Assembly (NCBI GenBank): GCA_010093815.1
Contig: ML996590.1
From: Pseudovirgaria hyperparasitica
Lineage: Eukaryota
DNA length: 38,203 nucleotides
Strand: one strand, 5' to 3'
The stretch's first letter is position 1, and each line of letters begins with the position of its first letter. Under the pieces are notes generated by a model. It was not told where the DNA came from. It ran no database searches and worked only from the letters and a program-made list of their open reading frames with translations. Position numbers and translations under genes: made by a program. Below are positions 1-37,672 of this stretch, piece by piece.

Positions 1-730
1 TAGCTATACTTCCTTCTATCTATTCTATTAATTATAGAATTATAAGTCTAGGTATTATTCCCTAAATAAAATATATTATACTTTAGTAGAGAAGAGTAGT
101 AGATTATTAAGAAAGTACTTTTTATAGTCTCTTTTCTAGTCTTTCTACTTCTTTTAGTTCTTCTCTATAAATATAGTTAGATCTTTAGATTTTAGTATAT
201 CTAGAGATAGAATAGAGTAAGTTAATAATAAAGTAGCTAGAATTCTAGTAGATTATTATAACTCTAATAGAGGATAAACTAATTCTATCTAAATTAGTAT
301 ATGGAGTTATTTAGCTACTATTATTTAGTATAGTTCTTTAAGAGACTTCTTAAGTTCTTATTTCTTTATAAGAAGTTTTATATATTTAGTCTATTCTTTA
401 AGAATCTAAATCTCTTAGACTTAATTAGTAATATACTTCTATAGTTTAGTAATAGTTTATTATAATATCTTATATAGCTCCGCTACGACTTATTATCTAA
501 CTTTATATTATTAGAAGTTACTTAGTATATCTACTATTTTTTTATTAGAAAGCTATATAATTTAGTCTTATATCTCTACTTCTTAGTTAGAAATAGCTAG
601 ATTTAATACTAATTATAGAGGATCTCTATTATTTAATATAGTATTACTTATCTCTATAGTAGATTATATTAACCTTCTTAGTTCTAGTTAAACTATCTTA
701 ACTATAGTACTATATAGAGAGTAATTTAAA
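1..730 (-). pseudogene. Ty3/Gypsy family B 5' internal region and gag (RIP-degenerate, runs off the window start)
   Basis: Minus strand ~200->10 de-RIPs to PKPKDPTVFTGKNQKEWKDWERDCEKYFLDDPLLFSTEAQRISFGEQYL, a Gypsy capsid-like pattern (PxxFxG..W..W..C..F..P..F..E..RI..YL). It lies directly downstream of the LTR at 731-958 on the minus strand. Confidence 0.7.
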
Positions 731-958
731 TATATAAATAGAGTTATTAGATAGTAGTATAGTTAAATAGAATAATAGAGTATATTCTATTATAGAATAA
801 ATTACTATTAAACCCTTTTAGTAGAAATCTAAGAGTATATATATAAAGGGATACTAGTCTATTTAGTATATAACCGTTTACTATCTATTATACTATCTTC
901 TAACTAAGTTACCTAAGATATATATAGATATAGTTATATCTAAGACTAAGTTCTAATA
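731..958 (-). repeat. 5' LTR of Gypsy family B (228 bp)
   Basis: Colinear with, and the same length as, 14776-15003 (e.g. gagttattagatagtagtatagtt vs gggttattagatagtagtatagtt). Minus-strand termini TATTAG...ATATA are RIPed TG...CA. Followed on the minus strand by gag. Confidence 0.85.
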
Positions 959-3900: not shown

Positions 3901-5453
3901 CTATATAGTTAAAATATAATAGCTTCTATAAGTATCTATCTAAGATATAAGAGATAGTTAAATATTATAGTAAGAGCGTAATACTTAGTATCTATTAAGT
4001 CTAATTTAAGAGGTATAGTTCTTATAGATATATATAATCTCTCTAATAATTATAATATACTTTTTAAACCTATAAAAGAGTACCTCTCTACTACTAGAAA
4101 ATAATAAGATATAATTTATATAGTAGTTATTAACTCTAGTTATAGAGGAATTATAATTAAGAATAATAGAAATAAGATAGTTATAATTCTAAGAAATATA
4201 GTACTTAGTAAAATCTATAAACTAGATATTACTAGATATTACTAAATCTCTAATACTAACGTAGACCTTATTATACTATCTTTCTTAGAAACTATAAATA
4301 TTAATCTAAAACTTAAGACTTATCTTCTTAATAAAATAATACTCTATAGTAGAGAAGAGAAAGCTATAAAATATAAGAAGCTTATTAAAGAATTTATAGA
4401 GTTATAGTAAGATAAAAAATCTATTATAAACTCTAGAGAAGTAAAGCTTATTCTTATAGAGGACTAGAGAGAACTTAAGAAGTTATATACTAGAGTATAT
4501 AATATTAGTCTACGGGACTATAGAGTAATTAATAAAACCTTTAATAGACTTTATAATAATAATAAAATAGAATAGAGTAAAAAGTCTATATAATTTAGCT
4601 CTCTAGTTTTTATTATCTAGAGAGAGATATTTAACTCTAAATTAAATAGACTAATATAGAAGCCACGCATAGTAATTAATATTAGAGGTCTTAATATAAT
4701 TAATATTAAGAATTCCTACCCGTTAATTAGAATAGATAATATACTCTAGACTAGTTAAGATTACTACTATATTATAATAATAGATACTATAAGTATATTC
4801 TACTAATAGTTAGTAAGAGAAGAAAATTATAAATAATTTATAGTAAATATCTATAGGGTTTAAGAATATCTAAAAGTTCTTACTATAGGCTATATTAATT
4901 TAGTCTAGTATATATAATAGAAACTTAATAATCTTCTATAAGAGTTTCTATAGATAAAAGTCTATATAGATAATATAGTAGTTTTCTCTAAGATATTTAA
5001 AGAATATATTTATTATCTATAGTAACTATAGAGTATACTATTAGACTTTAATATATCTCTTACTATAACTAAGACATTTATTAGATATCTAAGTACTATA
5101 ATTCTAGAAAAGAGAGTTAATATCTTTAGACTATCTTTAAAGATAGAGTAAATTATAGCTCTAAAAGGAATATAGATTCTAAAAGATACTAAGTTAACGT
5201 ATCTACTAATAAGCTAATCTACTAATATAGTACTTAAATAATATCTAGAAATAGTAGAATATCTACGAGGATAGTTACTATACTATATATAGCTAGTCTT
5301 ACTACTACTAAAAGCTAGTACTAAGCTCTTCTACTATACCCCTTATAAGAAGACTTAGTAGAAAGTATAGACCTTAAAAAGACTAGTTCTATAAACTAAA
5401 GCGCTTATTAAATTATTTTAGATAATATAAGAACTATAGAATAATCTAATCTT
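959..5453 (+). mobile_element. Ty3/Gypsy family A retrotransposon, copy/segment 1 (gag, C2H2 finger, protease, RT); RIP pseudogene
   Basis: De-RIPed motifs: gag EHIGFFDP...GKVYYRSVWLFID (~2150-2255); C2H2 CHIC..KYPSNNKLHQH (~3340-3410); protease D-T-G at 3589; RT V-Y-I-D-D at 4960-4974. The 5' end is cut by the family B LTR and the 3' end by the N gap. Confidence 0.9.
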
Positions 5454-5463
5454 NNNNNNNNNN
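5454..5463. other. Assembly gap (10 N)
   Basis: Run of n characters. Confidence 1.
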
Positions 5464-8400
5464 CTATAAGTAGAGTAAGTTTAACTATTTCTATTCTAGT
5501 AAAGTATTATAAGACTAGTATCTATTAAACTACTATTCTTAGAAAGAAAAAGAAGTTAGAAATAATAACTACTTTTATAGAAACCGCGGAATATAATATA
5601 CTAGTAGTAGTAGATAAGAGAACTACCCTAATAAGTACTAGATAATAAAAGAAAGTAAGAAAATAATCTAAGTTATATCTTCTTAGATAAATAAGTAAAG
5701 ATCTAGTAAAGAGTATAGTTAAAACTAATATTAAGGAAGAGACTATTAACTATATAATATAAACTATTAACTATATAAAGGGAATAGTAAGTATTAGCTA
5801 AAGAGCTTTAAAAAGATAATAATAACTTCTATATAAGTTAAGAGATAACTATATATAAAGCCGTAATATATCTATTATAATATAGTATCTATAGAATTTC
5901 TTAACTAAGAAGGTTTATAGAATAAGAAAGACTTACTAGATAAAGATATAGATAGATAAGCTTAAGAGTAAGCTAAGAAAAGCTAGTTAGATAAGAAATC
6001 TTATAAGAAGTTAGCTAGAGTTTTCTTTATAAGAACTAAGGGAGTTAAGACTCTATTATTACTATTACTTAAGAAACTATAAAGAAGTAGAAGAATAGTA
6101 GTAAAAAACTATTATATCTATAGATAAAAGTATCCTTCTAATAATAAGCTATATTAGTATATTATAGAAAAGTATCTAAAGAAGCTAGTAGATTATATAT
6201 ATATATAGTAGACGAGTTTCTATTATCTCTACTAGTACTATAAATTATTAAGAGTACTATAAAGTAGATAGAAACTAAAGACTATTACTTTTATTATTAG
6301 AACTATATTATAATAAATATAATACTAAATAGTACTATAGAGCTAGAATTAATTATTATAGATACTAGAGTAAAGCTAAGTCTTATTAATAGAAACTAGC
6401 TAGCTATAGTACTACTAGATTATAAAAAGCATATTATAAAACTTATATATCTAACTATAGTTATAGATATTAGTAATAAGGTTTATAATAGTAATAAGTC
6501 TATTAAAATAACTCTAATAGTATCTACTAACTTAGAAGAAACTAATATTATAGTTACTATTAAGTATAAAGTATATATTATTAAAAACCTAGTACTAAAA
6601 CTACTAATAGATATAGATACTATTAGTCTAGAAGAAATAGATATTAAAGTTTAAAACTATATAATTACCTTTCTATATAGCTAAAATATAGTAGCTTCTA
6701 TTAGTATCTATCTAAGATATAAGAGATAGTTAAATATTATAGTAAGAGTATAATACTTAGTATCTATTAAGTCTAATTTAAGAGGTATAGTTCTTATATA
6801 TATATATATAACCTCTCTAATAATTATAATATACTTTTTAAACCTATAAAAGAGTATCTCTTAGCTACTAGAAAATAGTAAGCTATAATTTATATAGTAG
6901 TTATTAACTCTAGTAGTAGAGAAATTATAATTAAGAATAACGGAAATAAGACGCTTATAATTCTAAGGAATATAGTACTTAGTAAAATCTATAAACTAGA
7001 TATTATAGAATACTACTAAATCTCTAATACTTATATAGACCTTACTACTCTTTCTCCCTTAGAAGCTATAAATATTAATTCTAAGCTTAAGACTTATCTT
7101 CTAAATAGAATAATACTCTATAGTAGAGAAGAGAAGACTATAAAATATAAAGAACTTATTAAAGAGTTTATAGAGTTATAGTAAGATAAAAAATCTATTA
7201 TAAACTCTAGGGAAGTAAAGCTTATTCTTATAGAGGACTAATAAGAACTTAAGAAGTTATATACTAGAGTATATAATATTAGCCCTTAGAACTATAAAGT
7301 AATTAATAAAACCTTTAATAGACTTTATAATAATAATAAAATAGATTAGAGTAAAAAGTCTATATAATTTAACTTTCTAGTTTTTATTATCTAGAGAGAG
7401 GTCTATAATCTAAAGATAAATAGACTAATATAGAAACTATATATAGTAATTAATATTAGAGGCCTTAATATAATTACCGTTAAAGATTTCTATCTATTAA
7501 TAAGAATAGATAATATACTCTAGGCTAGCTAAGATTACTACTATATTATAATAATAGATACTATAAGTATATTCTACTAATAGTTAGTAAGAGAAAAAGA
7601 TTATAAGTATTTTATAGTAAATATCTATAGAGGTTAAGAATATCTAAAAGTTCTTACTATAGACCATATTAATTTAGTCTAGTATATATAATAGAAACTA
7701 AATAATCTTCTATAAGAGTTTCTATAGATAAAAGTCTATATAGATAATATAGTAGTTTTCTCTAAGATATTTAAAGAGTATATTTATTATTTATAGTAGC
7801 TATAGAGTATACTATTAGACTTTAATATATCTCTTACTATAACTAAGATATTTATTAGATATCTAAGTACTATAATCCTTACAAAGAGAGTTAACGCCTT
7901 TAGACTATCTTTAAAGATAGAATAAATTATAGCTCTAAAAGATATATAGTTTCTAAAAGATACTATAGTACTTAAAGAATATCTAGAAATAGCGGGATAT
8001 CTATAAGACTAGTTACTATACTATATATAGTTAGTCTTACCGCTACTAAAAGCTAGTACTAAGCTCTTCTACTATATCTCTTATAAAAAGACTTAGTAAA
8101 AAGTATAGACCTTAAAAAGGCTAGTTCTATAAACTAAAGCGCTTATTAAATTATTTTAGATAATATAAGAACTATAGAATAATCTAATCTTCTATTATTA
8201 CTATAAGCTATTAAGATATATATTTCTAGATATTAATACTTTAAAAGAGTATAGCTTTAGAGTCTTTATATACTATATTTATAGAGACCTAGATCTAGTA
8301 ATATTATTAGTTCCGGTTAATAATCTAGTAGACCTAGATAAAACTAATCTTAATCTACTTAACTCTATAAGAATATTATAGCTATACTAGATAGAATTAT

Positions 8401-9854
8401 TTCTAAGGGAGGTAATTTAACTAATATTATTTCTTAGTAAAGCTATTATAGTAATTAAACGAAACTATTAGTCTATAGAACTTAAAATAGCTAGTCTAGT
8501 TTAGTTAGTAACTAAGCTTTAATATTTTATTAAGTTATTAGTATAGTTTATTATATTTATAGACTATACTATAATAATAACTATTATATATTAGATAAAG
8601 CTCTCTAGTATAGCTACTAACTATAAGAATATCTATCTTATTTAAGTAGCTTAATATCTCTTATAATATAAGCTTAACATCTAGTACTATTCTAGTAGAA
8701 ACTATATTATACTAGACGTACTTAGTAGACTTATAAGTATAGTACTAGCTATCGAAGATAATATACTAGATAAGATTAGCTAGACTTTTATAATTAGTAG
8801 TAATAAAGAGATAATTACTAAACTTATCTATATCTATTATATAGTCTTAATTAAGATAGTAGATAAATTTAAGAATTATCTATAGAAAGCTTATAAAGAA
8901 GATAATACTTAGAATAAAGTATATAAAGTACTAATTAAAGAAGATACTCTATAGTAAGAGAATAAGAATATACTAATATATATTAACTTTTCTAAAGGTA
9001 AATTATTATTAAAAGGGAAATTATAATCTCTAAATAGACTAAAATTCTTTATAAAAGATAAGATAATTTATAATATTAATCGAGGTAATAATTAGAAAAG
9101 GCTATTTATTCTCTATACCCTTCTTATTAAGATCTTTAATATACTTTATAATTATAGTTTCTATTAAGAAAAGAATAGACTCTATAAGAGAGTATCTATA
9201 TCTTTCTATATATACTATCTTTTAAAAGAAGTTAAGGCCTATATTACATATTATAAGTAATATAATAAGGTAAGAACGTCTTAGTAATAGCTATATAGAA
9301 GTTTTACTTCTATTATAACTTAGTATATACTATTTAGAACTATATACCTCGACCTTATTACTACTCTATCTAAGATAGTAATAGATTATAATACTCTAGT
9401 ATCTATTATCTATAAAGCTATAAAAAGAGTACTACTTATTCTAGAATATACTAACTAGAGCGCTAAAGAATAGACTAGTCTAATTTTACTAAACCTAGTT
9501 AAATATAATTAGAGAATCCCGGTAGAAATTATCTTAAATAGAGATACTAGATAGCTATTAGCCTTCTAGTAGAAAGTGTTTATAATATTAGAAGTTAAAT
9601 TCCTAATATCTACTATATATCGCCTATAAATAGACGGCTAGATAGAGAGAATAAACTAATCCGTAGAGATTAGAATATAATTTATAGTTACTAAGAATTC
9701 TAATAAAGATTAGAATACCTATCTACTATTTCTATAAGACTTTATAAATAATACTATAAATAAAACTACTAGTATATCTCTTAATAAGTAACTATATAGT
9801 TTTAAAGTTAAAGATAGTATTAATTCCTACGGAATCTTATAAAAAGATATAAGT
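5464..9854 (+). mobile_element. Ty3/Gypsy family A retrotransposon, copy/segment 2 (gag end, PR, RT, RNase H, integrase); RIP pseudogene
   Basis: PR DTG at 6361; RT VYIDD at 7734-7748; RNase H FLDVDASKEHGFG (~8223) and NYWPTELE (~8464); integrase DLITALP (~9350), WGIP.EIISDRD (~9510) and STAYRPQTDGQTERMNQ (~9609). Domain order PR-RT-RH-INT is Gypsy-type. Truncated by the Helitron at ~9855. Confidence 0.92.
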
Positions 9855-15560: not shown

Positions 15561-15586
15561 CATTAGGAAAGATACAGCGCTCCCAA
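15561..15586 (+). repeat. Left terminal inverted repeat
   Basis: Reverse complement of 37647-37672 with one mismatch. Confidence 0.92.
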
Positions 15587-15694
15587 GTACTCCTAAGTAC
15601 TCCCTAAGTATTCTTTCATCCCATTATATCTATCGGGCGGACCTACTTACTATCTATCCTAACGGGACGGCTTTATATAATTTATACTAAGTAT

Positions 15695-15832
15695 TCCGTT
15701 TATACCAAACGTCCCGTTTATACCGAACGTCCCGTTTATACCGAACATACTAGTTATACTAAACGTCCCGTTTATACTAAACGCACTAGTTATACCGAAC
15801 GTCCCGTTTATACCGAACGTACCGTTTATACC
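15695..15832 (+). repeat. Left subterminal 18-bp tandem array (~7.7 copies, consensus CCCGTTTATACCGAACGT)
   Basis: Read directly from the sequence. Confidence 0.95.
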
Positions 15833-15912
15833 AACGGGATAATTAGTACTAGTTGTTCTCTTAATACTAATTAGCTTACTAGTACTACTTATTTACTATA
15901 TACTAATCACTC

Positions 15913-18558: not shown

Positions 18559-21500
18559 ATGGTATTTTTTCTTTATAGTAACTATACCTCGAGATGCTAC
18601 GGGCCGTAGTCTTCTACTAATACTATATTAGAAAGATTAGTAGTATATACTATATAATCCGTAGGCACTATAACTCGGAACCGTATAGACGAGCACGGCT
18701 TGCTATATTACTATTATTATTATAACCATTAGGCCCGTAGCTACTACTATCGACCGGGTTACGGCGCGGCTTTAGTACTCGTAGTTATATTAGTCGATAG
18801 AACTCTTTAGTTCGCTCTATTAGTATTTAGCCGTCGAGTATTAATCAGAAGTCTAAGCCTATAGAATTAGGTACTTCTACTACTAATATTACCCTATGTA
18901 AAGATACTACTATTTTCCCTAATCCTGTTTCGGACCTGGAATCTATGGACGGCGTTACTAGTAGCTATGGTACCGATTTAGTATATTAGTCTAATATATA
19001 TAGTAGAAATACTATGTCTATGGCGACGAGGGCGTCTAGTACTATATATTTAACGAAAACGTTCGAAGAGGAGAGCGGTATATATATTATAGTAGACTAG
19101 AGTAGACGTGATAATCCGTCCGACGTAAGTATATATAGTCTAGGTTTATAGTAGTAACTAATTTAGTAGGCCTAATTCGGTTAATTCGATAGTAAGTTTA
19201 TAGAGCGCCTTATAATATAGACGAATCGGTTTAGTATTTCGAATATAGTATACGATAAATTAACTACTATCCTTAAATAGACTTCCGCTATACCCCCCGA
19301 CCTTTTTATACTAAAATCTAATGTCGTGCGTAAGTAGTTATTATACTACCCTAAAGGGATACTGCACGAAAGTTAGTAGCGTAGCTGTGATATATTTAGC
19401 ACTACTATAGTCGAATACTAGTATAGGGATCCGCTTACGTTAGTGGAATTCCTCCTTAGATACTAACTATTCGCTAGTAAGCTCGTGTTTAAGCCGGTAC
19501 GATAATTTACTAGTTTAGGCGACCGGGTATATAGTAAAGCCTATATAGTAGATGGTTAGTAGGATATATACGCTACTATTCCGGATGGTACCGTCGTCGT
19601 CCCTATTATTTTATCTTCGGATAAGATAAACCTTACTAACCATGGTAGTAATAGAGTAGTATAGCTAGTCTATCTATCTATTTATAATCTACCACTAAAC
19701 GTCCGCTTATCTAGGAGTCTACTATTATTTCTACTACTTACTCTATTACTAGTAGTTAAGCTAGAAACGGTAGCGAATCGCTTTATGTTCCATTAGGTTA
19801 TAAGTAAAGTTCTAGCCCGTATATCCGCCCATGATAGAGTCGTTAACTATACTAATTATTATATAGCGTTATAGGCTATATAGAGTACTAGAGTATTAGT
19901 ATTATGTGCCGATGGCGGCTTATGTAAGTGCTATCCGCGTTTAGCTTTATATATTATAGATTTTCCGGAGTAGGTGCTTATCACGGGTGTATCCCATTAG
20001 TATATATATCTAATATATATAGTCCCTAGTAACAGACGATAGTATCTACGAGAAGCTATTACTAGTATATAGGAGTTCCGTATATACTCGTCGTTATAGA
20101 AATAGGTTTACCGTGTACGTCGCGAGTTAATAACTAATGGCTATAGTAGCGAGTATACTAGTAGTAAGATAGATAATAGGACGAGTGTACCTAGTATCTT
20201 ATCGTTTTCGTCGATATCTTTCGCGCTAGTAGTATAGGGCTATTATATTCGCTAATCGGTTAAGAGTCGGTATTCTAGTAGGTGGATAGAGCCATTAGAT
20301 AATTTTGCCTAGTTACTTACTAGAGTTAATATATACCGCGCGGTCGCTCCGGATATTCTACATTAACTATATAAGGGTATATTATAACACACGTTCAATT
20401 GGATAGTCTTATATATTATTAATTAAGAGTGTACGGGACATAAGTTAAAGGGTATATTTACCGGTATACCCCCTATAGAACGAGTAAAGAAGGCGATCGA
20501 TAAGCGATTCGCGTCTATTAGGGTATTCGGTCGTTATAACCTACTTAAGTATATAACTTTAGTAATATAATAGACGGGGGCGATGTTTAAGCGTATACTA
20601 GTAGTGTTTATAGTCGCGTTTAAACCGCTCCTATATCATGATTAACACTTCCTAAGCGTAGTGCGGGCGGTTATTAATATATGTATATTAGCGGCGTACT
20701 ATACGCATAATATATAGATACTAGCATACTTAGAAGAGGCTATATTACGCTTAGATAACCTAAAATACTAGTTTATACTATATCGTGGAGATAAATCGGA
20801 GGATAATTATTTTAACTTTCCGAAGTTCTATACATTATCGCACCTAGTTAATACTATTAAACACCATAGTTCGTTATATCTAATATCGGTAGAGCTACTA
20901 GAGCGATCTTATATCGTAGTAAAGGAATTATATTAAGGTTTAAATAAGAGGGAGACGTTTCTATAGTAGATGCTAGTAGTAGACACACGCACGATAAATA
21001 CTAAAATCTCTAGTAGTATAGAGGTAGCGGCTAGTACTAGTATATTAGTAGCCCCTGGCCTAGAGTAGCTCGATAATATACGTAAGCTAGTCGGCTAGCG
21101 GCGTATTCTAAAGGAGCCACGCTAGAGTAAATATACACTCTACGTCTTATAGAGCCATAGACTATCTACGTCCTACTAGACTACCATTAGCGACCTCTAC
21201 GACGTGTATAGTAGTAGTTTTATATTACTTGATACGGTTATACCCTTTATATATAACTATCGTAATCGGCTTATTAGGGATAATATATTAAAAGGTGCGA
21301 ATGTTAAACATATTAAAAAGGACCCTTCGTAGGCACGGGTCCTTTCTATCTATATATATAAGACCATGTACGTGCTAATACGACTAGATAGAGATATATC
21401 TATAGAGGCCTTCGACCCGATTTAGGTAAGGTATGCCCGTAACTAGTAAAAGAGTAGTAAGGCTAGGGAGGATTATATAATAGTATAGGAGTTTAACGAG

Positions 21501-21920
21501 GGTAGTAACTATCTTAACGGGAAGCGGGTTAGTAAAGTCCGTATATTTCTAGAGGTATACGATATGGAGAGCATTAACGTAACTAGTAGTATGGCGGCGC
21601 GATTCCTAGGTACGTTAGTTAAACTACTTAATAACTCGGGTAGAGGCAATATTAATACTATTAGTGGCCTTATACTATTACGTATAGCGGGTTAAAGGTC
21701 TAGTAATAAGACTTATATAATGGATAGGTTCCGTGTCTACGAGCTAGAGCATGTCCTACGCCCTATATAGATTATATTATATTAGTTAGTTACGGATAGT
21801 TTATTCTAGTTAAATACGTATAGTAATTAGGGGATCTATAATAAGGTATATAACCTAGACTTCTAGGCTATGAATAGACGAAACGTGACCGTAGCGTTAA
21901 AACACGGGCGCGTGTCGTAA
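18559..21920 (+). pseudogene. Plavaka-family transposase (RIP pseudogene; start uncertain, 18559-18945)
   Basis: One frame from 18945 to stop 21918-21920 with de-RIPed motifs YRDP; RVYSEAHTADGWW..VVVPIILSSDKTNLT..G...AWPVYLSI.NLP (SDKT ~19617); CADG..RKCYPRLALYIADFPEQ..CP.C.VP (~19845-20025); APDILHQLYKG (~20346); HFNFPKFHALSH (~20808); LNTYSDW..YNEVYDPDF. These are the motif series of fungal Plavaka transposases (PF18759). Confidence 0.9.
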
Positions 21921-22366
21921 GTCTATCGCTATCTACTACCGCCTACCGTAGTATACCGGCATATACCGGTATATAGCGGAAGTTATAGTTTATATATAGT
22001 AGTACTTAATAGTCGTATCCTATACTAGGATATCTCTAAGGAATAATCGTGGTTTATTACGATCGGTTCTATAAAAGGCTTATATTTAATAACTATCTAT
22101 AATTTTAGCTAAGGAGTATCTAGGGATGCACCTCCTTATTACCTAATAATTACTAGCTAGTATAAAAACTCTACGCCTCTAAAAGGGGTATATAGAACTT
22201 AAAGGATCCTTATTCACGGGTAGAACTAGACGCGGATAGTATTAACCTAACATAGATAGATTATATATATTAATACCCTGAAATCCGAACTATGTCTCTA
22301 GGTCTACTAGACCTAGCTCACACCCGATTCTAATGTTTTCGTTATTCGCGTTTATGCCTCGTTGGA

Positions 22367-22500
22367 TACCGGGCATATAACGAGTCTATAGTTAAGTAAG
22401 TATTAGGTACGTAACGAGTCTATTAATAAATGAGTACCGGGTATGTAACGAGTCTATGTAAATAAGTGTAAATAAGTATATACTAGGTATATAACGCTCT
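22367..22500 (+). repeat. ~34-bp degenerate tandem repeat (3-4 copies, core GG(C/T)A(T/C)(A/G)TAACGAGTCTAT)
   Basis: taacgagtctat occurs three times at ~34-bp spacing, followed by a partial fourth copy. Confidence 0.8.
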
Positions 22501-25758: not shown

Positions 25759-26082
25759 AAGCCTTACGTTTAAGCCGAGTCTCACGTTTAAGTCGAGCCT
25801 TATATTTAAGTCGAGCCTTATACTTAAGTCGAGCCTTACGTTTAAGCTAAGCCTTATATTTAAGTTAAGCCTTACGCTTAAGCCGATCCTTACATTTAAG
25901 CCGAGCCTCACGCTTAAGCCGATCCTTACGTTTAAGCCGAGCCTTACGTTTAAGCCGATCCTTACGTTTAAGTCGAGCCTTACGTTTAAGCTGATCCTTA
26001 CGTTTAAGCCAATCCTTACGTTTAAGCTAAGCCTTACGTTTAAGCCGAGCCTTACGTTTAAGCTAAGCCTTACGCTTAAGTC
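25759..26082 (+). repeat. 18-bp coding tandem repeat x18 (de-RIPed GAG CCT CAC GTT CAA GCC = EPHVQA)
   Basis: 18 contiguous units with no spacers, in frame with the helicase gene. Confidence 0.95.
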
Positions 26083-29000
26083 GAAGCTTATAATATAACT
26101 ACCGTCTTAACCGATAATAAACCACTCGTCTTTAGTATACTTACTAGTAACTACTATTCTAACGACGAGTATAAACTCAAGAAGGTCCAAAGTAGTAAGG
26201 CTCCCGTTCCTACTTATACTACCTATTAGATCTCTCTTATATAGAGCGATCTATAGTTAACCTTTGGGAATATCTATGGTATTAGTAGAGAAATAGATGG
26301 ACTTAAGTAGGAATAAGCAAAAACTTAAGCCGAGCTTAAGCTAGTAGTATTTAAGACTCGTGGTAAAGGTCACGGCTTCGAAGAGTCGATTAGTTATATA
26401 TATAGATTCCTTGAATTCCCTAAGTACCGCTCTTAGATTAAGTTACGTACTCGCTTCTAATGGATTAACAAAGGGAAATTAGTATCCTTAATAAGCTTAC
26501 TCCGCTTTAATCGTACTAATATCCTTCTATTATCCGACTACCCTACGGTATAGATCTTTAAGGTTAAGTAAGTAGGCGACTTCATCGAGTATTTTTCTAA
26601 ACTTCCTAATCTTATTATAAGTGAAGCGGATAAAGCTAATATACTATATATTAACACCGGCCTCTACGAAGACCCTCGCGACTTTTAGATTATCGAACTT
26701 ATAGCTAGCGAGCTTCTTAGTATAGGTTTTACTATTCTATTATATATCGGACCCGATATAATATATAAACGAGTAAAGTAATTCTTCGAAGATCTAGTTG
26801 CTTATACTATAGTTCGTATCTTGCTACCGCTACGTAACCCTATGGATCTTACCAGCTTTAATAATAAGCTTAAACTAGAGAGCGATCTAATTAATTCATG
26901 GTATATAGGAGTTACTACTCTCTATATATAATACGGCATAATAAGTAGGCCGGATAGTTGGCCCTAGATCTCTATTCTCCACCGCGAGTCATTCGATAAG
27001 AAATTTAACTACCTAATATATATTACTATAAGTACCTTGTAAGACGAATAGGCGGATCTCCCATTATTCTAATTCTAAGACGTTACTATTAGGTATATCT
27101 AGCTCTTAGGTGTTACTCGGGCGCTCTTAGCTATCGTCTATCCTATTAATGCGAAAGGATTCTATCGCATAGAACTAGGTAGTCGTAGGTACCTTAAAGT
27201 GGATTTAAAGGATTATAATAACGATACGTACCGCTTTAAAGTCCTTTAATTTCGCCTAGGCGTTCTTCTATTCGAATACCTCGCTCTAAAAGTCTTTAAT
27301 AAGGTTAGGCGTCCTCCTAAAGTACCTAAGGTACCGATTATATTAATGGATGCGGTTACTAATATAACTCGAGCTCGTCCTAAATATTTTATTCGGACTA
27401 GCGACACTAGTTTAAGTACGATTAGGTCGTCTCTTACTACGCTTATAGGGTTTATAGACGTTCCGGCTTTAGTTAGCGTATAAACCTACGATAAGCTTAC
27501 TAAGTAATATATTAATACGTGCTAGAAACTAACCTACCACGCCGTATAAGCTTCTAGAGACGGCGGCGTAGACGACTACGCCGCTTAGGATACGTTTAAT
27601 ACGATGGTCCTTAATATTATCGTAGACTTAGTGTCTATGTCTCTAATATATAGGTCCCCTAACCCTAACGACGAGATTCTAGATTATAGTATAGAGCCTT
27701 AGAATACTCTCGTTACTCTTTCTAAATTATCTATATCCCTAGATAATAATAAGGACACGAATATAGAATATAGTCACGATGTTATTAGCGACGAAGGTTC
27801 TATTACTAGCCCCGTCGCCGATATACATACACTTCTAATATCGTCCAAAGTCCACTCTAGTATTCTATCCCCTTTGCCACCCTCTATATAGGATCTAATA
27901 CTCGGTAATAACTATCTAAATCTTTAACCCGTCGACTACAACCGCTACGTTAAAGATTATGAAAGATTCCACGATCTCTAGGATATTATACGTTCGGAAC
28001 TATCTCCCTAATAATAGTATATCTATATATAGGCGACGGACGTACTTAGGGCTTAGTTCCTACTTCACGGCTATAGAGGAGCTAGGAAGAGCTATTTATA
28101 GCTTCGTCTACTACTAGCTATACTTCTAATTAATAAAATAAACGGTGCTTCTATTATCGCTTATACTACTAAGGTAGTTATCCTATCTAGCGATGTAATA
28201 GCGCACCTCCCTACGCCAGGTTCCACCTAAACATATAGAATATATATATATGTTATTATCGGCCTAACTAACGAAACCTACGACGACGCTATAAGAAAAG
28301 CATATAAATATATAAGTAATATATTTACTTACTATAAGTCTCTAAAGATACCGGTTATTCTTCGAAGATACCCCGAAGCCGTTAATTAAGAGGTTTTCTT
28401 TACTATAGCTAGACTATCTCGTCGCGGCGACCCTCTTATTAGGCCAACCTAGAACGATGTAATAGGCGGTACTATCCTCGCGTAAGCCTAGGCCGACTAT
28501 AGTAAACGACTATCAGAATATAGCACGGATCCCCGTGCTCGTCTATGGGAACTATATACCGGTTACGTTACGCTCGAGGTCGTTAGACTCGTTAAATCTC
28601 GATACTAATATAAATAGATCTCTAAGAATTTCGAGAAAGAAACGGCTCGGCTATTACGCGCTATCTATAAACGTTACGCTTATAATAAGGACATGCCTAA
28701 GAAGGAGTATAATAGGATGAACGAGCTATACCTCGCTACCTAGGACCTAGTTACTATCTACGCCTAGATTTATATAGGGACCCTATATGTTATGAATATC
28801 GCTAAGGTAGTCTATAATATATATCCGATTTTAGTCGTGATGGAAGAGGCTACGTGTATCCTTAAAAGTAATACACTCGGGATTATCGTTAATTATACTA
28901 CTATAGAATAGTAACTAACATTTATTTACGTCGGCGACCTACGCTAGCTCGATACCTACTAGCGTAATAGTACTAATATATAGGCCGCGAACTAGAGGAT

Positions 29001-30081
29001 CTCCTTTATAAAGCGCTAGATATAATATAGTTTCCTAACTACTCGCCTTACTAAGTTAGAACGCTTAGTTCCTAGGATAATAAACGTTATATCGCTAATT
29101 ACTTACTCGGGCGAGCTAACGACCTCGCCCCGCATAATGAATAATATTAATATACTACTCGTAGAGACCGTTTAATAAATATTTAGAATCCGCGGCTATT
29201 AATACGTCGTATACGCTAACATTAACGGGGATCACGCGCACATAGTAAATAACTTAATATATAATATAGACTTATTACGTTTCACTTAGTAGATTATTAC
29301 TAAGCTCTTCTATTATAGCGTTATACTCGATCACGTACTCTATATTTCTATATACGCCGCCTAACGTAATCTGTTTAAAGGGATGGTTAGGAACTCGCTT
29401 CTAACTACACTTACCGCAGTAGATAAAGCTCGATTTAATGCCCTACCTAAGCCGGTATAGAAGCTTGTCTAATGGCGTTCATGGGACGGTTCTTAGAGTT
29501 ATAATAACGATATAGTCCTTATTAACCCGGTCTAAACTAATCGCTTTGGCTTCCTCTCGGAAGTAAACTATAACGTTATTACTATTACGCGCGCTAAATA
29601 GATAATAGTTATTATTACTAACTTCGTATCTCTTAAGAGGTAGAAAGTCCTAGACGGCGTACTTGGCGAGATATAGAATAAGTACTCTAAGATTCATGCA
29701 ATATACACGTGCACGACCCCCGACCTAGATAGCCTCCCTCTACTCTCTAACATACCTAATCTCTAATATAGTCGCCCTATACTTAGTGTTAGAGAGAGGG
29801 GAGAATAAAGTAATTAATAAACTACCGATAGTACTAAGCCCTATAAGCCGCTGGTCTACCGTAAATATAACGTCGAAGGATATAAGTCTATTAAGTATCT
29901 AAGAGGGTCGACGCTTACATGTAATAACTATTAGGACATCGGCCATAAAGCTAATGTTTACTCTAAACCCAAGACGCTTACGGGTACGTTTTACTATAAT
30001 TATAGGACTACCGGTTATACTTAGTGTTATTATCCTAGCCGCACTAAATTACTAGCACGTATAAATAGTAATAATCCAGTT

Positions 30082-30165
30082 AATACTACTAGAGCTAATA
30101 CTACTAGAGCTAATACCACTAGAACTAATACTACTAGAACTAATACTACTAGAGCTAATACTACT
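30082..30165 (+). repeat. 15-bp coding tandem repeat (~5.5 copies, AATACTACTAGAGCT; de-RIPed about DATGA)
   Basis: Read directly; lies in the helicase C-terminal tail. Confidence 0.85.
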
Positions 30166-31180
30166 AACGAAGTAACTACTAGTAGCTAGGACGATAGAGA
30201 CTACGAGGATGCCGGCCGAGACGGTAGTATTATAATATATAAAGATATAGAAGTTAATTAGTAATAGTATACAATTAGACTTACGTGTTAGGGCTACTTA
30301 GTTACGGCTTCTTAGTAAGTATACCTCTATATCCATTTTAGATATAGTCATGACATCCTACTAGGTAGATAGTTTAGCTCTATTAAAGACCTATTAAGGG
30401 TATTTCTATTACGTCTACTCTAGTATAGACGCGCTATTAGATAATACGGCGCTACTAGGCATGTTAACTAGTACCTACTAATTAAGAAATAAACACGATT
30501 CTATATCTACCGCGAGCCCCGGCCTAATAACGTAGGCTTCCTTTAGTTATCCCCTTTATACTTTTAAAACTACTTCTAGTCTTTATATCGGGAGATATTA
30601 CCACCTAAAGAGAAAATATAAAAAAACATACGCCCTAATTAAAGCCTCTACCTTTAGACTTTAACCATGATATATACGGGATATAGTAAACCTAAATATC
30701 GCGTACTTTAAAAGTATGGAAGGATACGATACTTAAATACGACGAAATATAGGCTTATAATACTCGGAGAGTACCTAGGGATAAGCACATGAATATAAAA
30801 TAGGATAAGACCAATGTGGCACCTTATACATGTATGGCCATATACCGTTCTAGATGTAGTTACCTACGATATAATATTACGAGATAAGAATCATGGCTAT
30901 CTAATTCTATTAAGGGTATTAGACGACATGAAGTAAATAACTACACGCCCGACCACGCCACGCTAAGTTACATACGTGTTATAAACGCGTGTTCGAGGAA
31001 TAATAAGGATATAAATAAGGTTCACCTAGTAGGTGCCTCGTTATTCCGGCTTCTACCTCTATTATCCGATCTATACCTCCGTCTTCCTCGCGTCTATGAT
31101 ATACTACGTATATACTATATAATTAGTCTATAAATTATAAATACTATATTAACTATATACGTTAACTACATACGATTAAT

Positions 31181-32477
31181 ATATTAAATCCGATTCTATA
31201 ACAAAGTAACCGTCCGAATATAGTAATTACTATAGTACTACTTCGCATCTTAAGCCTAGATATATAAGTAAAGCGTGAAGCTATGGAGGCGCGTGTAAGG
31301 TAGCTATATATAGAAGTATATACGGCTACTCTACTCGTAGACCATAGACGTTAAACTAAGAACGAGCTTAGCGTAAAAAGAGCACGTGAGATTATTAATA
31401 AGGTAGCGGGCGAATTCCTAGTAGTATAGGAAAGAGTAGTAGAGTATATAGAGATGAAGGCGCTATACTATATCTACGACTAGGTACGCACTATAGTATA
31501 GAAAACCGTATATTATAGAAAAACTATCTCTAAGTGTAAGAAGAGGCGTGTAATTATAGCTCTATATCCTATGACCTTATAATCCCCGCCTATCACGACC
31601 TTATAACCTCTATCTATCGCGACCTTATAACCCCCGTCTATCACGACCTTATAGCTCTCGTATACCACGACCTTATAGTCTATACTCGTAGCGGTCCCAT
31701 AGCCTACTAACGTATATACTATAAGAAAAATTAAATTCATGATTAGATTCGACGATAACGCATTCCTTAAAATACTAGTACCTACGTCTAACTAGTGGAA
31801 AGACTATAGCGACGCTTCGTGTATTAATTTAGTAGTATTTATACGGCGAATTAGGGTCTAATACATAACGAAGACTAGGAGGGTACTTAACTAGAGCCGT
31901 ACTACCATGCATTCTATCGTGCTAGTAGTTAAGTATATAATAAGTAAAACGGAACTAGAGGTAGATATTAGATGGCTCCTATAGTTAGTAATTAAATATA
32001 TCCTAGAATATAGTAATAGTATAATACTCCTCGGCCTTAGATAGAATATAGATAGTATACCTAAAGTAAAACGAAATATAAACCAGCGACTAACACATGA
32101 TAGTATAGACGGCTATATATAGATTACGCTTGAATAAATCCGCCCCTCCGTCCCTAATACTACACTTGCTACGATTAGTATAATAATAGTAATAGAAAGC
32201 TACCGTCTACGATGGTAGAGATACCTACGGAGATGGTATTATAGGTAGTAGATAGCATTACCTAAACGACTTAACCCTTCCTCTAGCGATACTATATATA
32301 CTACTATCGGCACCCGGGAAGTCGCGAGACTAATCTATAAGCTCTAAAGATAGTAACTTCGAAAGCCTTAAAAGTACCTTAGATATAGAGGATATGGATA
32401 TCGCTTTTAAAGACTAATAGGATAATGAAAAGGGTGCTAGAGGTAGTGAGAGTGGCGTGCGTACTTGGCTAAGGTAA
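31181..32477 (+). pseudogene. Orphan cargo gene 3 (helical N-terminal domain, TTLQPPSI repeat linker, C-terminal domain, acidic tail)
   Basis: Coding-like frames MSNPI..NRPNAVIAMVLLRI....KREAMEARVRQL... and KIEFMIGFDDNAFLEIPVPTS.WKDY.... Branch/acceptor GACTAACACATGATAG at ~32088-32103; one frame change before the repeat. Confidence 0.5.
31571..31680 (+). repeat. 24-bp tandem repeat (~4.5 copies, core CTATCACGACCTTATAACC)
   Basis: gaccttata recurs five times at 24-bp spacing. Confidence 0.9.
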
Positions 32478-32818: not shown

Positions 32819-35800
32819 ATGGCCTAAGTCGTATATAGGAATAGATAGGTATAATAAGAGTTACGACTATTCTAGTTTAACTACCGGCTATAGAATAGCT
32901 AACTATAATACGCATATACGACGTACGGAGGCCTTAAGCGTTAGCGCCCTTCTACCTTATATCTAGTACCTCTAAGGCCTATACCTAATACCCGAAATAA
33001 GTTATAATATATATAGGGCTACCATTATTAAGATAGTAAGTAAAGAAGTAGTAATAGAGCTTGAAACTAGTGGCATAGACACTACTATACTCTATAGGAT
33101 AGTTAAGGAAACCGTTACTAGAGAATTTAATTGGCATATCGCGGCTATAAATAGTAAGTTAGTACCGACGGTTACGACCATAGATATAATAGAGACTAAA
33201 CTAGATATAGATACTATAGGCATAGGTACGTAGATATAGTTACCGCTAGAACATAAGGAGAAAGATAATATAGAAGATACTGAAATGGAAGACGACGTAG
33301 CTAGTATGCTTAGACACATATATATACACACGGTCCTAGATACTAACATTAGAGTAGTATCGAATACAGGCGCGGTTATGACTACCGACATAGATAATCT
33401 ACCTATAAATATCGTCGTGCCTAGCGAAGCTTATCTACGCGTAAACATACTAGCTATAGAGATATAGTTATAGTTACCGCTAGAATATACGGAGAAAGAG
33501 AACGTGGAAGATACTAAAATGGAAGACGACGCAGCTAGTATACTTAGACACATATATATATATATATATGGTCCTAGATACTAATATTAGAGTAGTATCG
33601 AAGATAGGTACGGCTATAACTACCGACATAGATAATCTATCTATGAATGTCGTCGTGTCTAGCGAAGCTCATCTACGCGTAAACACACTAGCTATAGAGA
33701 TATAGTTATAGTTACCGTCGGAATATACGGAGAAAGAGAACGTGGAAGATACTAAAATAGAAGACGACGTAGCTAGTATACTTAGATATATATATATATA
33801 TATGGTTCTAGATACTAACATTAGAGTAGTATCGAAGATAGGTGCGCCTATAATTACTAATATAGATAATCTACCTACGAATATCGTCGTGTCTAGCGAA
33901 GCTCATCTACGCGTAAATACACTAGCTATAGAGATATAGTTATAGTTACCGTCGGAACATACAGAGAAAGAGAACGTAGAAGATACTAAAATAGAAGACG
34001 ACGTAGCTAGTATACTTAGATATATATATATATATATATAGTCCTAGATACTAATATTAGAGTAGTGTCGAAGATAGATGCGCCTATGATTACCGATATA
34101 GACAATTCCCCTACGAATGCCGTTGTGCCTCTAGATACCGGCGAGACTTATCTATAGCTGCTAGAAATAAAGAGGACACTCTCGGATAATATAGTAAACC
34201 TAGTCGATTCTCCGAAACGCCTAAAACTAGAATATATTATACTACTAGATATCGACTAGTAGACACGTAAAAACCAGGAACTATTCGGGTTAGTAGATAA
34301 TTTATATAGTAGATATATATCGGATAGTATATTAGCGAATAGCCTTAACTTTAAAATCCTTTCTATAGACGATAACTCTAACGGAGATGAAGTAAAGCTA
34401 GATATAGAGGACTTAATTCCGGTAGATAACGATGTTAGTACGAAACTATAGGAAGCGTAAGTTATACTAAGAAGTAAGTAGGAATATATACTACCATACT
34501 AATGTACCTATAGAATATTCGCCGTTAATAACTCTAATAAAGTAGTCTAAGCTATCTCTTATTATACGGAAGAGATGCGGTTACTTACTATAAGTATATT
34601 TAGGCTTGCGCTAGACGACCTAATAAAGGAGTTCGGCCATATACCTACTCTATATCTAGCCTTTAGTATAAGTGGGTTATATAGGCTATAGGCCGGCTAG
34701 TTACTCACGGTAGTTACTATGTTTAAGTAGCGGGCGGGTCTATGGAAGTACTAGATCTTAGTAGATAGCCTAGGGCTAGAGAAGATAATCGTGCTTATAA
34801 CGTTCATCCGCCTCGCGTTTTATTAGGACTTTCTACGCGATAACATAGAACTTAATCTAGGAAATTACCTATAACCGACTTAAGACTCGGGCATGGATAG
34901 GAAGTGCCTAATATAATCTCTGTATCCGATTAAATATCCGTGTAGCTAGACCAATGATTTTGTCTATGTGCCCCGCCTTTAAGGACTATTTATACTATAC
35001 TACCTAAGGTCCCTTCTAATAGCGCATTAGCCGTAGCGCTTTAAATAGATATATAACGATATAGATAGCATGTTTACCGATTAAATTAATAAACGGAACC
35101 CGATAAAGATAATAGTGCGGCTAGCGTACTCGAAAACCCTTACTAACGCCTCTAGTATCCGATAATTCTCGTATATAGACCGATAATACTTAGCTAAGAG
35201 ATGCCTACACCCCGAATGGGAACATAGCGTCGATATTAGTAATACTACTAAATTCAAGACCGACGAGGAGTATATTATTAGAGCATGGTCGATTCCCGTT
35301 AATAGAACCGCTACTACTAAATTTCCGTCGCGATACGCGAAGAACCATATAATCTATAGTACCGTCTAGAGTATGGAACCCTAATATCTTAAATCTTTTA
35401 AGGGACGCGTGGTTATAAGAGTAAAGAGAGCGAAATAATTTAGTACTAAAAATACTTAAACTCGCGAAGTAGTATTCCTTAGTATATTAATAGTAGACGA
35501 GTTCTATTCCGTAAAGAACCCCGATATAAAACAGTATAAATATACGATATATAATGCCCTTATATTTAGTATATAGGTTAGTATAACGCCCCTCTCGAAT
35601 AGTCTAGTAGATATTCTAGCGGCTATCGAGGTAGGTGCTCCGGATAAGTTACCTAACTATATTAACGATAATACTACTAAAAGGGTATTCGAGAGCCTAT
35701 AGAATAAAACTATAAGGAAGATTATTATAACGTGGTCGAATAAACTCCTTAGTTTAATAAAAGGTAAGCTGGTAGATACGATGGCCGCGATAGTCCGTAG

Positions 35801-36990
35801 GGCATTAGAAACCATAGAAGGTAAGCGTATACTACGTATGGTAGCCGATTAGTATTTACTATTCGTTCTATAACGGGAACTACTAACTAAATGGTTTAAC
35901 GGAGAGGCATGTCTATCTACGATATCAAAGCTAGTAGTAGAGTTTATATCCGTCCCGGCTATAGAACTAGAGAAGATAATTATACGGTTATACGAGAATA
36001 GAGGTAGATAGTTTAATAATCTATAGTCTAACGGAACGCCGCGGGACTCGTAGGTATAATCTACCGCCTAGAGTAAATCGAAAGGGGGTACCGGGTCCGG
36101 GCTTAACGTATACTACTATTAGGCTAGGCTAGCTACTATATATATACTACTTATATACCTTACTAATAAAAAGATAGAAGACGAGTAAATTAATATCACG
36201 CTTACGCGTCGGAGGGATAGTAATAATAGTATACCGAGTAAGATAATTACTAATCCCGTACGCGAAGCGCTTCTATAGCTAGATAAGGCTATGCGAAAGG
36301 AGATAGTATTACTAGCTAATAAACACGCTTCGAAGGTAAACTAGATCCGTAACTTTATTAATAATAACGTTTATAATGAAAGTACTAGACGCGCGCGACG
36401 AACATCCGCCGACCGCCTAGAGAAAATCGTACTTATATGTGCCGTACCGGCAAGCTTAATATTCCTATACTTAGTAAGTGTTTATACTATCTACTAGTAA
36501 CGTAATTTACTAATATATATAGGTACTATATCCATATACACAAGCGAAAATGTTAGTATATTTACTAGCCGGCCTAAGTACGTCCGAATTAAATAAGATA
36601 TATAGATTATTTAGGTCGACTAAGTCGGATTCTCTATATATTCTACTAGTATTAGCTTCGTAGGTCTGCGAAGGACAAGACCTAATAGTCGCCGGTTTTA
36701 TAGTATTAGTAGACTAATACTTACGTAAGGAGACGTGGCCGTAGGCAAGTATAAGATATTATCGCCATGGATAATATCGGCCTATAGTATATATATATAC
36801 TTTGATTTTAGACTATTTAGAGGTCGAGGCTAGACTCGCCGCGTTAGGTAAGGTAATCGAAAGCACGAGGACATAAGCCTTAGACCTAGAAAAAGGAGAT
36901 ATAGCTACGGTAGAGATAGCTATACCTAATATACTAGTAATAGGCGTATACTTTAATCCTATAGAGATATAGTAGCATAGAAGTAAGTAA
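32819..36990 (+). pseudogene. SNF2-family (SWI2/SNF2) ATPase with long acidic repetitive N-terminus (RIP pseudogene; ends approximate)
   Basis: Motif I ILADSPGLGKT (34755-34787); Ia L.CPRSL (~34995); II VDEFHSVKNP.T (35493-35530); III SATPLSNS..DI (~35580); IV EKIVL (~36420); V EGQDLT.A (~36670); VI QA..R.HRHGQ (36742-36774). GTAAGT..CTAAT..AG introns at 34457-34513 and 36474-36522 have lengths that reconcile the reading frames. Confidence 0.88.
33236..34130 (+). repeat. 234-bp (78-aa) coding tandem repeat, ~3.8 copies
   Basis: Units start atagttaccg at 33236, 33470, 33708 and 33942. The ORF-track peptides at 33285 and 33742 are fragments of two units. Confidence 0.95.
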
Positions 36991-37116
36991 GGTAGTCGGT
37001 TAATTAGCTTCTAAGAGACTAGATAGCATGGTAGTATAAATACGAACCGCTGTTTACTCGTGATTACATGTCTATATATATCTATACGTGAAGAGAAATA
37101 AGATATTTATTCTATA

Positions 37117-37436
37117 CCGTTATATAGTAGGACGTTACTATATATACCGGCATATAACGGAATGTTCCGACATGCGCCGGTATATTATAGGATATTCCTA
37201 GATACTCAAAGTATAGTCATAGTATAAAGTAGTATTACTATTATATGCCGGCATATAGTAGGACGTTACTATATATGCCGGTATATAACGGGATCATGTT
37301 CTAATATACTATACGCCGCCGGTATATTATAGAATATTCCTAGATACTTAAAGTATAGTCGTAATATAAAGTAGTATCGCTATACTATGCCGGTATTTAG
37401 TAGGACGTTACTATATATGCCGGTATATAACGGGAT
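37117..37436 (+). repeat. Right subterminal ~131-142-bp tandem repeat (2.3 copies)
   Basis: tagtaggacgttactatatat(a/g)ccgg(c/t)atataacgg at ~37125, ~37256 and ~37398. Confidence 0.9.
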
Positions 37437-37460
37437 TAAACGTTTTCTTAACGTTCGATA

Positions 37461-37640
37461 GAACGATTCTAAAAGAACCGGGACGGCTCTAGGAGAACTA
37501 GAACGACTCCGGGAGGACTAGGACGACTCTAGGAGGATTAGAATAACTCTAGAAGTACCGGGACGACTCTAGGAGGATTAGGACAACTCTAGAAGTACCG
37601 GGACCCATTTAGGATAACTTTAGAAGTACCGGGAGACCTA
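37461..37640 (+). repeat. Right subterminal 20-bp array (~8 copies, GGACGACTCTAGGAGGACTA / ..CTAGAAGTACCG)
   Basis: Read directly; abuts the right TIR. Confidence 0.88.
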
Positions 37641-37646
37641 GAAGCA

Positions 37647-37672
37647 TTGGGAGCGCCGTATCTTTCCTAATG
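37647..37672 (-). repeat. Right terminal inverted repeat
   Basis: Reverse complement of 15561-15586 with one mismatch. Confidence 0.92.

Follow-up and report, generated by a model that had tools for sequence, protein, structure and literature searches.

Does a Plavaka transposon of the fungus Pseudovirgaria hyperparasitica carry a chromatin-remodelling motor of its own? The question arises from a 38.2-kb stretch of contig ML996590.1 (assembly GCA_010093815.1; hereafter the window), in which an initial annotation placed a SNF2-family ATPase gene inside a transposable element. Two sequencing runs of a single study, possibly the source, contain the stretch, and no RNA run is listed among those that contain it. 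The whole AT-rich window bears a strong signature of repeat-induced point mutation (RIP): TpA/ApT is about 1.6 throughout, the index (CpA+TpG)/(ApC+GpT) lies between 0.02 and 0.29, and TAA or TAG stops interrupt every reading frame. The window is fungal repeat DNA damaged by RIP, and motifs were read from stop-masked translations. It contains a 22,112-bp PlavakaB-type transposon, and the gene studied here is the last one before the right end of that transposon. Both the identity of the gene as a SNF2-type pseudogene and its location inside the element can be given with high confidence; what it did for the element can be argued far more tentatively.

On the + strand the motifs succeed one another as LPY-stop, ILVDSLGLEKI, LIVDEFYSVKNP and VSITPLSN and then, after a change of frame, as CEGQDLI and XASIRYYRHGX. 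LPY-stop (34491-34502), read directly from the translation, is a RIP form of the SNF2 Q-motif 'PYQ'. Motif I (Walker A), ILVDSLGLEKI, belongs to a block at 34755-34808, ILVDSLGLEKIIVLITFI, which aligns with LLADEMGLGKTIQALALL in the SNF2 profile described below. Motifs II and III share a block at 35442-35663, with DEFY at 35496-35507 within LIVDEFYSVKNP and SITPLSN at 35580-35600. The helicase C lobe (36523-36822) comprises the motif IV region, motif V (EGQDL, 36670-36684) and motif VI (36742-36774). Two consensus spellings are typical of SNF2 proteins, [ST]xTP[LI]xN after the DExH box and Q..R..R.GQ in motif VI. SITPLSN, 25 codons downstream of DEFY, fits the former, and X-ASIRYYRHG-X fits the latter, both X being TAG or TAA and compatible with Gln; at these positions a profile made from 58 phage cores shows LTGTPiLN and QAeDRlHRIGQ. 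The spellings first reported, DSPGLGKT, DEFH, SATP and EGQDLT, are not the letters present but de-RIPed forms, from each of which C>T or G>A changes lead to the present letters.

Standard searches see this gene dimly. In Pfam, three 1500-aa frames matched no family (0), and shorter pieces of this stop-masked, RIPed pseudogene matched a sole family, SNF2-rel_dom, with 12.3 bits where the cutoff is 24.9 (E=0.092); this weak match falls in the motif II-III block. Because the cutoff was not reached on the stop-masked reading, the gene is filed as a SNF2-type pseudogene and not as a scored member of the family; the failed cutoff itself says little about the ancestral protein, many of whose residues RIP has changed. 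Helicase_C had no Pfam match, and the C-lobe piece matched no family. Plain hmmsearch of the motif II-III block gave E=0.012. All matches in a PDB search (3/3) were CHD1L, with E ~0.5, over motifs II-III, and the C-lobe piece drew weak unrelated matches only. The 763-residue stop-masked frame had 0 phmmer matches among 1,835,955,588 representatives, a blank that RIP may explain. Word-index searches with the SNF2 region, the transposase region and the SNF2 gene of a related family (L300, see below) scored nothing; since they also missed a transposase with a Pfam E-value of 1e-32, the method is unsuited to RIPed or stop-masked queries and its blanks are silent on novelty.

RIP converts Gln and Trp codons to stops, His and Cys codons to Tyr, and Thr codons to Ile. 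For this reason codons were scored instead of residues: each codon, in its dinucleotide context, was assigned a likelihood under each ancestral amino acid and the profile column was compared with background, the C>T/G>A channel being preset at 0.8 for CpA and at 0.3, 0.3 and 0.1 for the other contexts. The profile, built from 58 canonical SNF2 cores of viral (phage) contigs found by a motif-VI pattern, was the only helicase-family profile applied to the window. A first profile, drawn from prokaryote genomes by scanning for DEAHRIKN, was dropped as it represented a non-canonical bacterial helicase family, with a canonical motif VI in 1 of 41 cores. This pattern mostly caught one bacterial family occurring in many phyla, with cores of ~650 residues, GaGKT, LTGTP and a non-SNF2 C-lobe (ESIsLh...DRiHRvGL).

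Out of 76,000 codon positions in all six frames of the window, the two top matches are at 36502-36822 (30.7 bits) and 35442-35663 (27.6 bits); they are separated by 1.2 kb, share a strand and have the correct order and spacing. The next best match elsewhere in the window reaches 20.8 bits, on the Walker-B region of the element's helicase gene, and the maxima of 150 codon shuffles of the element average 18.5 bits (standard deviation 1.9, highest 25.9), which corresponds to Gumbel P values, per 7370 codons, of 1.5e-4 and 1.2e-3. When the RIP channel is left out, the C-lobe match falls to 18.8 bits. Motif I (19.3-19.4 bits) is at noise level alone (P=0.26) and collinear with the two top matches. 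A frame-tolerant chain over 34200-37000 scores 47.2 bits against 24.3±3.2 (maximum 31.6) in 60 shuffles, P ~6.5e-5 per tile, and among 26 real 2.8-kb tiles the one overlapping the gene is highest (36.0, the others <=31.2); the extra jumps of the chain alignment between motifs I and II are near noise. By this profile, helicase motifs I, II, III, V and VI are collinear on one strand with SNF2-like spacing. The proposal that SNF2 motifs occur in order is upheld by the motif order and the chain, and the SNF2 call holds, though weakly by standard tools, which stay below their cutoffs. RIP-aware scoring here recovers a gene missed by Pfam and by a search of 1.84 billion proteins.

The structure of the gene can be followed in part. 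Motifs Q to IV lie in the frame of position 32703 and the remainder in the frame of 32701, and these two frames are joined exactly by a canonical 49-nt phase-0 intron on the + strand (36474-36522; GTAAGT at 36474, TTACTAAT at 36507-36514, TAG at 36520-36522). Two frame-consistent introns had been annotated; this one is confirmed, and 'frame-consistent' does not describe it, because the reading frame moves by +1. A total of 40 in-frame TAG/TAA stops interrupt the coding frame, 35 in the 661 codons of 34491-36473 and 5 in the 149 codons of 36523-36969. Those of the first segment comprise 20 TAG, 15 TAA and no TGA, as expected from RIP of CAG, CAA and TGG. This copy of a SNF2-type (superfamily 2) gene, a remnant that occupies ~33.2-36.99 kb, is a dead pseudogene. 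The antisense frame of the core (34491-36473) has 30 stops in 660 codons, fewer than the 35 in 661 of the coding frame, so stop counts alone cannot pick the coding strand in RIPed DNA. Upstream, the putative 5' end of the annotation (32819-33230, + strand) begins with an ATG at 32819 in a stop-filled frame. It is followed at 33231-34106 (+ strand) by a tandem repeat of 234 nt x 3.7 with 89% matches, in which one frame stays open for 73-75 codons per unit and yields an acidic 78-codon unit. The repeat is plausibly coding, as a repeat-bearing N-terminus, and the long acidic repeat N-terminus of the initial annotation is retained at that strength. At the other end, the stops at 36970-36975 and 36988-36990 (36970-36990, + strand) are candidate ends of the frame of 32701. 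The right-hand arrays start 54-185 bp past the last stop, from a weak copy at 37044 to 37110-37175; the first estimate was ~130 bp.

The element itself spans 15561-37672, with transposase, helicase and SNF2 genes all on the + strand. Its left terminal inverted repeat (TIR), CATTAGGAAAGATACAGCGCTCCCAAGT (15561-15588, + strand), is preceded by TA and matches the reverse complement of the right TIR (37645-37672, - strand), which ends in ...TTTCCTAATG and is followed by TA. The TIR sequence CATTAGGAAAGATAC[A/G]GCGCTCCCAA starts at 15561 and its reverse complement ends at 37672; the match is 27/28 over TA plus the first 26 bases, and the window has no further copies beyond these two. The termini, CATTA...TAATG, equal CATCA..TGATG after one CpA>TpA and one TpG>TpA change, and PlavakaB elements have CATCA..TGATG ends with 2-3-bp target-site duplications (TSDs) according to the accessible part of the report that describes them (PMC12730594). 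TA flanks both ends, the 3-bp flanks differ (TTA vs TAT), and, given how frequent TA is in this RIPed DNA, the match weighs little. The transposase pseudogene (18880-22377, + strand) matches Pfam PF18759 at E=2.4e-32 and 112.9 bits (cutoff 26.3) at ~19401-19997.

The RIP index is 0.25 over the transposase, 0.25 over the helicase and 0.27 over the SNF2 gene, against 0.02, 0.09 and 0.06 in three flanks, and the GC fraction is 0.36-0.37 inside the element against 0.22-0.29 outside. Both quantities stay level within the element and change abruptly at each TIR. The mutational history of the SNF2 gene is thus that of the element and not that of the surroundings, and together with the matched TIRs this bears out the annotated placement of the gene inside the element. 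An independent insertion, with a TIR and TSD of its own, had been named as an alternative; none was found around the gene, as no pair among 78 inverted pairs in 31.0-37.7 kb both has matching flanks and brackets the gene alone. The sole inverted pair flanking the gene (31900-31935 / 37001-37036; 36 nt, 72% complementary) has unlike flanks (CCG vs TAA). It was judged to be a chance pair on this ground, as was a 27-nt pair that touches the right TIR and does not continue.

Relatives of the element were collected from metagenome contigs with the transposase motif WPVYL[ST]IxN, which gave 121 loci; the motif was present in translation in 111 of them, mostly in a typical Plavaka context. In two families, L300 and L287, a SNF2-like gene lies inside the repeated unit, within 3-8 kb of the transposase. 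The L300 family comprises five contigs (L279, L286, L300, L303, L309) whose SNF2, transposase and right-end regions are 78-90% identical in DNA. The transposase reaches 178 bits against Plavaka. The SNF2-rel_dom gene (E=1.2e-9 and 1.9e-8), also part of the repeated unit, lies 4.5-8 kb from the transposase in divergent orientation. The family is un-RIPed and its SNF2-rel_dom gene is degenerate (L300 1-3300, - strand; L309 2500-7000, - strand; L286 13166-16445). The gene reads LLADDCGTGKT, ILDEAHRLR and MLTATPLVNGIEDL, with SSEGLNL instead of the usual GG-GLNL, and its N-terminus is acidic and then turns into tandem repeats. Contigs L307 and L302 hold more distant homologues of this type.

The L287 family, closer to the window, comprises four RIPed contigs (L270, L287, L289, L314) with 88-91% identity and a RIP index of 0.64-0.78. 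Its transposase scores 167 bits for Plavaka and aligns collinearly with that of the window at 172 bits when RIP is allowed for on both sides (double-RIP-aware alignment). Its ends, ...TTTCC[CT]GATG, match the TTTCCTAATG of the window, the terminal 10-mer of which is TTTCCTGATG of L270 bar one TpG>TpA change. RIP-aware scoring of its SNF2-like gene gives local matches of 29-32 bits at motif I and 21-29 bits at motifs V-VI, with chains of 45.4, 47.2, 44.0 and 36.8 bits against 30.2±4.2 in shuffles (maximum 39.5, n=40). Motif II reads DEFH, to be compared with DEFY in the window; DEFH occurs in 0/58 phage SNF2 cores. A terminus-like TATTAGGAA, the RIP form of CATCAGGAA, stands ~300 bp past the 3' end of the SNF2-like gene (L287 2285-2300, L314 2284, L270 13917), and copy similarity runs on past this site to an array, as in an internal end or a nested arrangement. 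The left ends of the L300 and L287 families were not found within the fetched loci. One further locus, L273, was not counted: a canonical SNF2 C-terminus (~7700-8840) lies a few kb from a Plavaka-like open reading frame at the contig end and is probably part of an ordinary host gene. The case shows that nearness alone proves nothing.

We infer that the SNF2 gene travelled with the element lineage and is not a stray neighbour. A working accessory gene is favoured because three Plavaka families, counting that of the window, hold such a gene in the repeated unit and because the closest family shares the unusual DEFH. Taken whole, role included, the statement that this is an accessory SNF2 gene of the Plavaka lineage is put forward tentatively, and several observations weigh against it. 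The window SNF2 shows no similarity above noise to the SNF2 genes of L300/L309 and L287 (tblastn, RIP-aware scoring and, for L287, double-RIP-aware alignment), whereas the transposases reach their 172 bits by the same double-RIP-aware method. Over profile-aligned columns the window scores 39.5 against L300 and 44.6 (standard deviation 11.1, n=58) against phage SNF2s, and so is no closer to L300. The SNF2-like region of the L287 family has no Pfam match, and its support (z ~3.5) comes from related, non-independent copies. The arrangement differs, SNF2 and transposase being on the same strand ~11 kb apart in the window and divergent at 3-8 kb in L287/L300. By tblastn the L300-type gene is present in 7/121 loci, and most of the long Plavaka loci fetched are without SNF2 by hmmsearch/tblastn; the RIP-aware scan, limited to five RIPed loci, found a SNF2-like gene in 4/5. 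From the 3' end of the transposase (~22.4 kb) to the right TIR the window is ~15 kb longer than L287, and the element is seen as one copy only. In plain tblastn of the element against the 121 metagenome loci, only the transposase and repeats matched. The expectation that homologues of the gene would be found near Plavaka transposases is therefore borne out in location, in two metagenome families, and not in sequence: with no similarity linking the window SNF2 to the genes of other Plavaka families, its closest homologues were never found.

Several of these observations would also follow if a host SNF2 gene, or a duplicate of one, had been captured between Plavaka ends, carried along and RIPed without ever serving the element. 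A passenger of this kind need have no homology to the SNF2-like genes of the two other families, despite their clearly related transposases, nor share the gene arrangement of L287/L300; the extra ~15 kb looks like acquired cargo, and an ordinary fungal intron has been kept, as it would be in genomic capture. Such a passenger is nonetheless rather unlikely. A SNF2-like gene in the repeated unit of three Plavaka families is more than a one-off accident predicts, and the DEFH form of motif II is common to the related L287 family and absent from the phage cores. In addition, phmmer turned up no host-type SNF2 relative among its 1.84 billion representatives, though RIP may explain this.

The remaining features of the element bear on a second explanation. 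Subterminal arrays lie at the left end (15681-15851, 18-nt unit TTTATACCRAACGTCCCG, ~8.6 copies) and at the right end (37044-37618, with 131-142-nt units at 37044-37436 and 20/40-nt units at 37459-37618). An internal array of 18 nt x 18 (AGCCTTACGTTTAAGCCG, 25760-26084) matches the array at 998-1290 of L287 with 57 bits. It reads TTAAGCC-GAGCC-TTACGT, and its counterpart TTAAGCC-TTA-TTACGT-TA in L287, L314 and L289 is placed differently with respect to the SNF2-like gene. The array might bind a protein or encode a hexapeptide repeat. Shorter arrays occur at 30081-30188 (15 nt x 5.7), 31554-31677 (24 nt x 4.4) and 22378-22457 (34 nt x 2.4), the last directly 3' of the transposase, where the L287 family has its subterminal arrays. 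Between transposase and SNF2 gene lies a pseudogene for the C-terminal RecA lobe of a UPF1-like superfamily 1 (SF1) helicase (29059-29622, + strand), which matches Pfam AAA_12 (PF13087) over profile positions 24-193/195 at 29.3 bits (cutoff 27; E=7.9e-7); the AAA_11 N-lobe had no Pfam match. For the 'RNA helicase' of the initial annotation the evidence extends to a UPF1-like SF1 helicase C-lobe and no further; such enzymes act on RNA or DNA.

It might be supposed that the ends are those of a Plavaka element and that some of the interior between 22.4 and 37 kb (helicase, SNF2, arrays) is another element or host DNA, brought in by nested insertion or enclosed by the joint ends of two neighbouring elements. 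Three features lend themselves to this: only a few hundred bases separate the end of the transposase from the right terminus in the L287 family, while here the TIR lies 15 kb beyond; the transposase is followed, as it would be at a subterminus, by the short array at 22378-22457; and the weak 36-nt inverted pair flanks the gene. A composite origin is nevertheless improbable. The window contains neither a third copy of the TIR nor an internal terminus, the RIP index and GC remain flat over 15.6-37.7 kb, and the inverted pair is without matching flanks. No Pfam family was matched on the + strand in 22.2-26.0 and 29.4-32.9 kb or on the - strand in 22.2-29.7 kb, and hence no domain of another transposon type. 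Moreover, the L287 family has the 18-nt array of 25.76-26.08 kb as well, so that some of the interior, at least, is DNA of the Plavaka lineage.

That the gene is not SNF2 at all, and reflects chance look-alikes in AT-rich RIPed DNA or another helicase family, is very improbable: no standard search was significant, motif I alone is at noise level, stops are as few in an antisense frame as in the coding one and the RIP-aware test was run against the SNF2 profile only, but the two best of 76,000 codon positions lie 1.2 kb apart in the right order and spacing with the Gumbel and chain probabilities given above, the SNF2-specific signatures TP-L-x-N after DExH and Q..R..R.GQ are present, and the intron joins the frames exactly.

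Outside the element, window positions 1-9000 have a GC content of 21-24% and a RIP index of 0.02. They contain a direct duplication at ~2.77 kb spacing (e.g. 3127-4322 vs 5897-7096, identity 87-94%) and a run of N at 5454-5463, and their translation includes the reverse-transcriptase-like YIDNIVVFS. This part looks like an older, more heavily RIPed retroelement, within or beside which the Plavaka element sits.

If the gene was indeed an accessory gene of the Plavaka lineage, its intact product would be expected to track along duplex DNA at the expense of ATP, as SNF2 enzymes do, and the element would be the most likely beneficiary. Nucleosomes could have been loosened over the repeat-rich ends and promoters, allowing the transposase to bind and cut. 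Alternatively, the product may have opposed silencing by heterochromatin, as the TET/JBP enzymes of other fungal Plavaka elements are thought to oppose methylation. This proposed action is drawn from what the SNF2 family does, and it would parallel the TET/JBP cargo (accessible part of PMC12730594) and the accessory genes of red-algal elements discussed below. The stronger claim, that a Plavaka lineage encodes its own SNF2-type translocase, here with a UPF1-like helicase, as working accessory machinery that remodels chromatin at its ends or blocks silencing, is doubtful at present. If true, a second anti-silencing strategy, different in its mechanics, would stand alongside the TET/JBP dioxygenases that sister elements carry, and Plavaka would be the first group of cut-and-paste transposons known to supply a chromatin remodeller of its own.

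Compared with SNF2 ATPases (best solved match CHD1L), the pseudogene has the same order and spacing of motifs Q and I-VI, a DExH box followed by TP-L-x-N, and an Arg-rich motif VI ending in GQ, and it has no RING insert. It differs in motif II, DEF(H) rather than DEAH/DEGH/DESH, in motif V, EG-x-D-L, and in the absence of the usual D..WNP block before motif VI. Unlike phage SNF2 cores, in which ~85 profile positions separate motifs I and II, it has ~235 codons between them. With the L287 family the window has in common the terminal 10-mer, the 18-nt array, the 172-bit transposase alignment and DEFH; with L300 it shares an acidic, repeat-bearing N-terminus of the SNF2 gene. The L287/L300 units measure ~10-13 kb, and no UPF1-like helicase was seen in the fetched parts, in contrast to the 22-kb element of the window with its helicase.

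Accessory genes of eukaryotic DNA transposons are rare, and those known (TET/JBP, SET, methylases and VANC) point to a fight over silencing. If a SNF2-type motor recurs inside Plavaka, a chromatin remodeller joins this list, and intact relatives would provide an experimental handle through excision, expression and chromatin state. The copy in the window is dead, and its value is as a pointer to the family. Some fungal PlavakaB elements (CMCT/EnSpm-like) carry a TET/JBP dioxygenase, as described in the accessible part of PMC12730594. Like them, the element here has a PF18759 transposase, CATCA..TGATG-type termini and an additional gene whose function is plausibly chromatin-related or epigenetic, with TA on both sides as a putative 2-bp duplication, but its extra genes are a SNF2-type ATPase and a UPF1-like helicase and not TET/JBP, of which no domain was found in Pfam scans of the element parts covered. 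At 22.1 kb it is large, and in this it resembles the giant Plavaka of red algae, of 17-19 kb, with accessory genes PAG1-3 (bioRxiv 10.1101/2025.02.11.637652, accessible part). Common to both are the size class, a transposase with several accessory genes with DNA or chromatin functions, and internal tandem arrays beside an accessory gene. The red-algal accessory genes, in a different kingdom, encode a DNA N6-methylase/SET protein, a ParB/2OG-oxygenase protein and an unknown protein; the accessible part of that paper describes no SNF2 or SF1 helicase accessory gene and names SNF2 once, for host gene families (bioRxiv 10.1101/2025.02.11.637652). Data S1 of PMC12730594 comprises Plavaka sequences, among which such genes may occur. 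A Plavaka or EnSpm element with a SNF2 gene was not described in the full-text literature searched, supplements excluded; as far as their accessible parts go, PMC11588098 (SWIM domain only) and PMC10799480 (fusions of host genes with transposable elements) do not bear on a transposon SNF2.

Two precedents lend the accessory-gene reading a context. JBP2 of kinetoplastids has a SNF2 domain fused to a TET/JBP hydroxylase, and so provides a case of a SNF2 motor working with the class of enzyme that fungal Plavaka elements carry. VANC of VANDAL, an anti-silencing protein encoded by a DNA transposon (bioRxiv 10.1101/2025.02.11.637652, accessible part), is the precedent for a DNA transposon that encodes its own anti-silencing factor.

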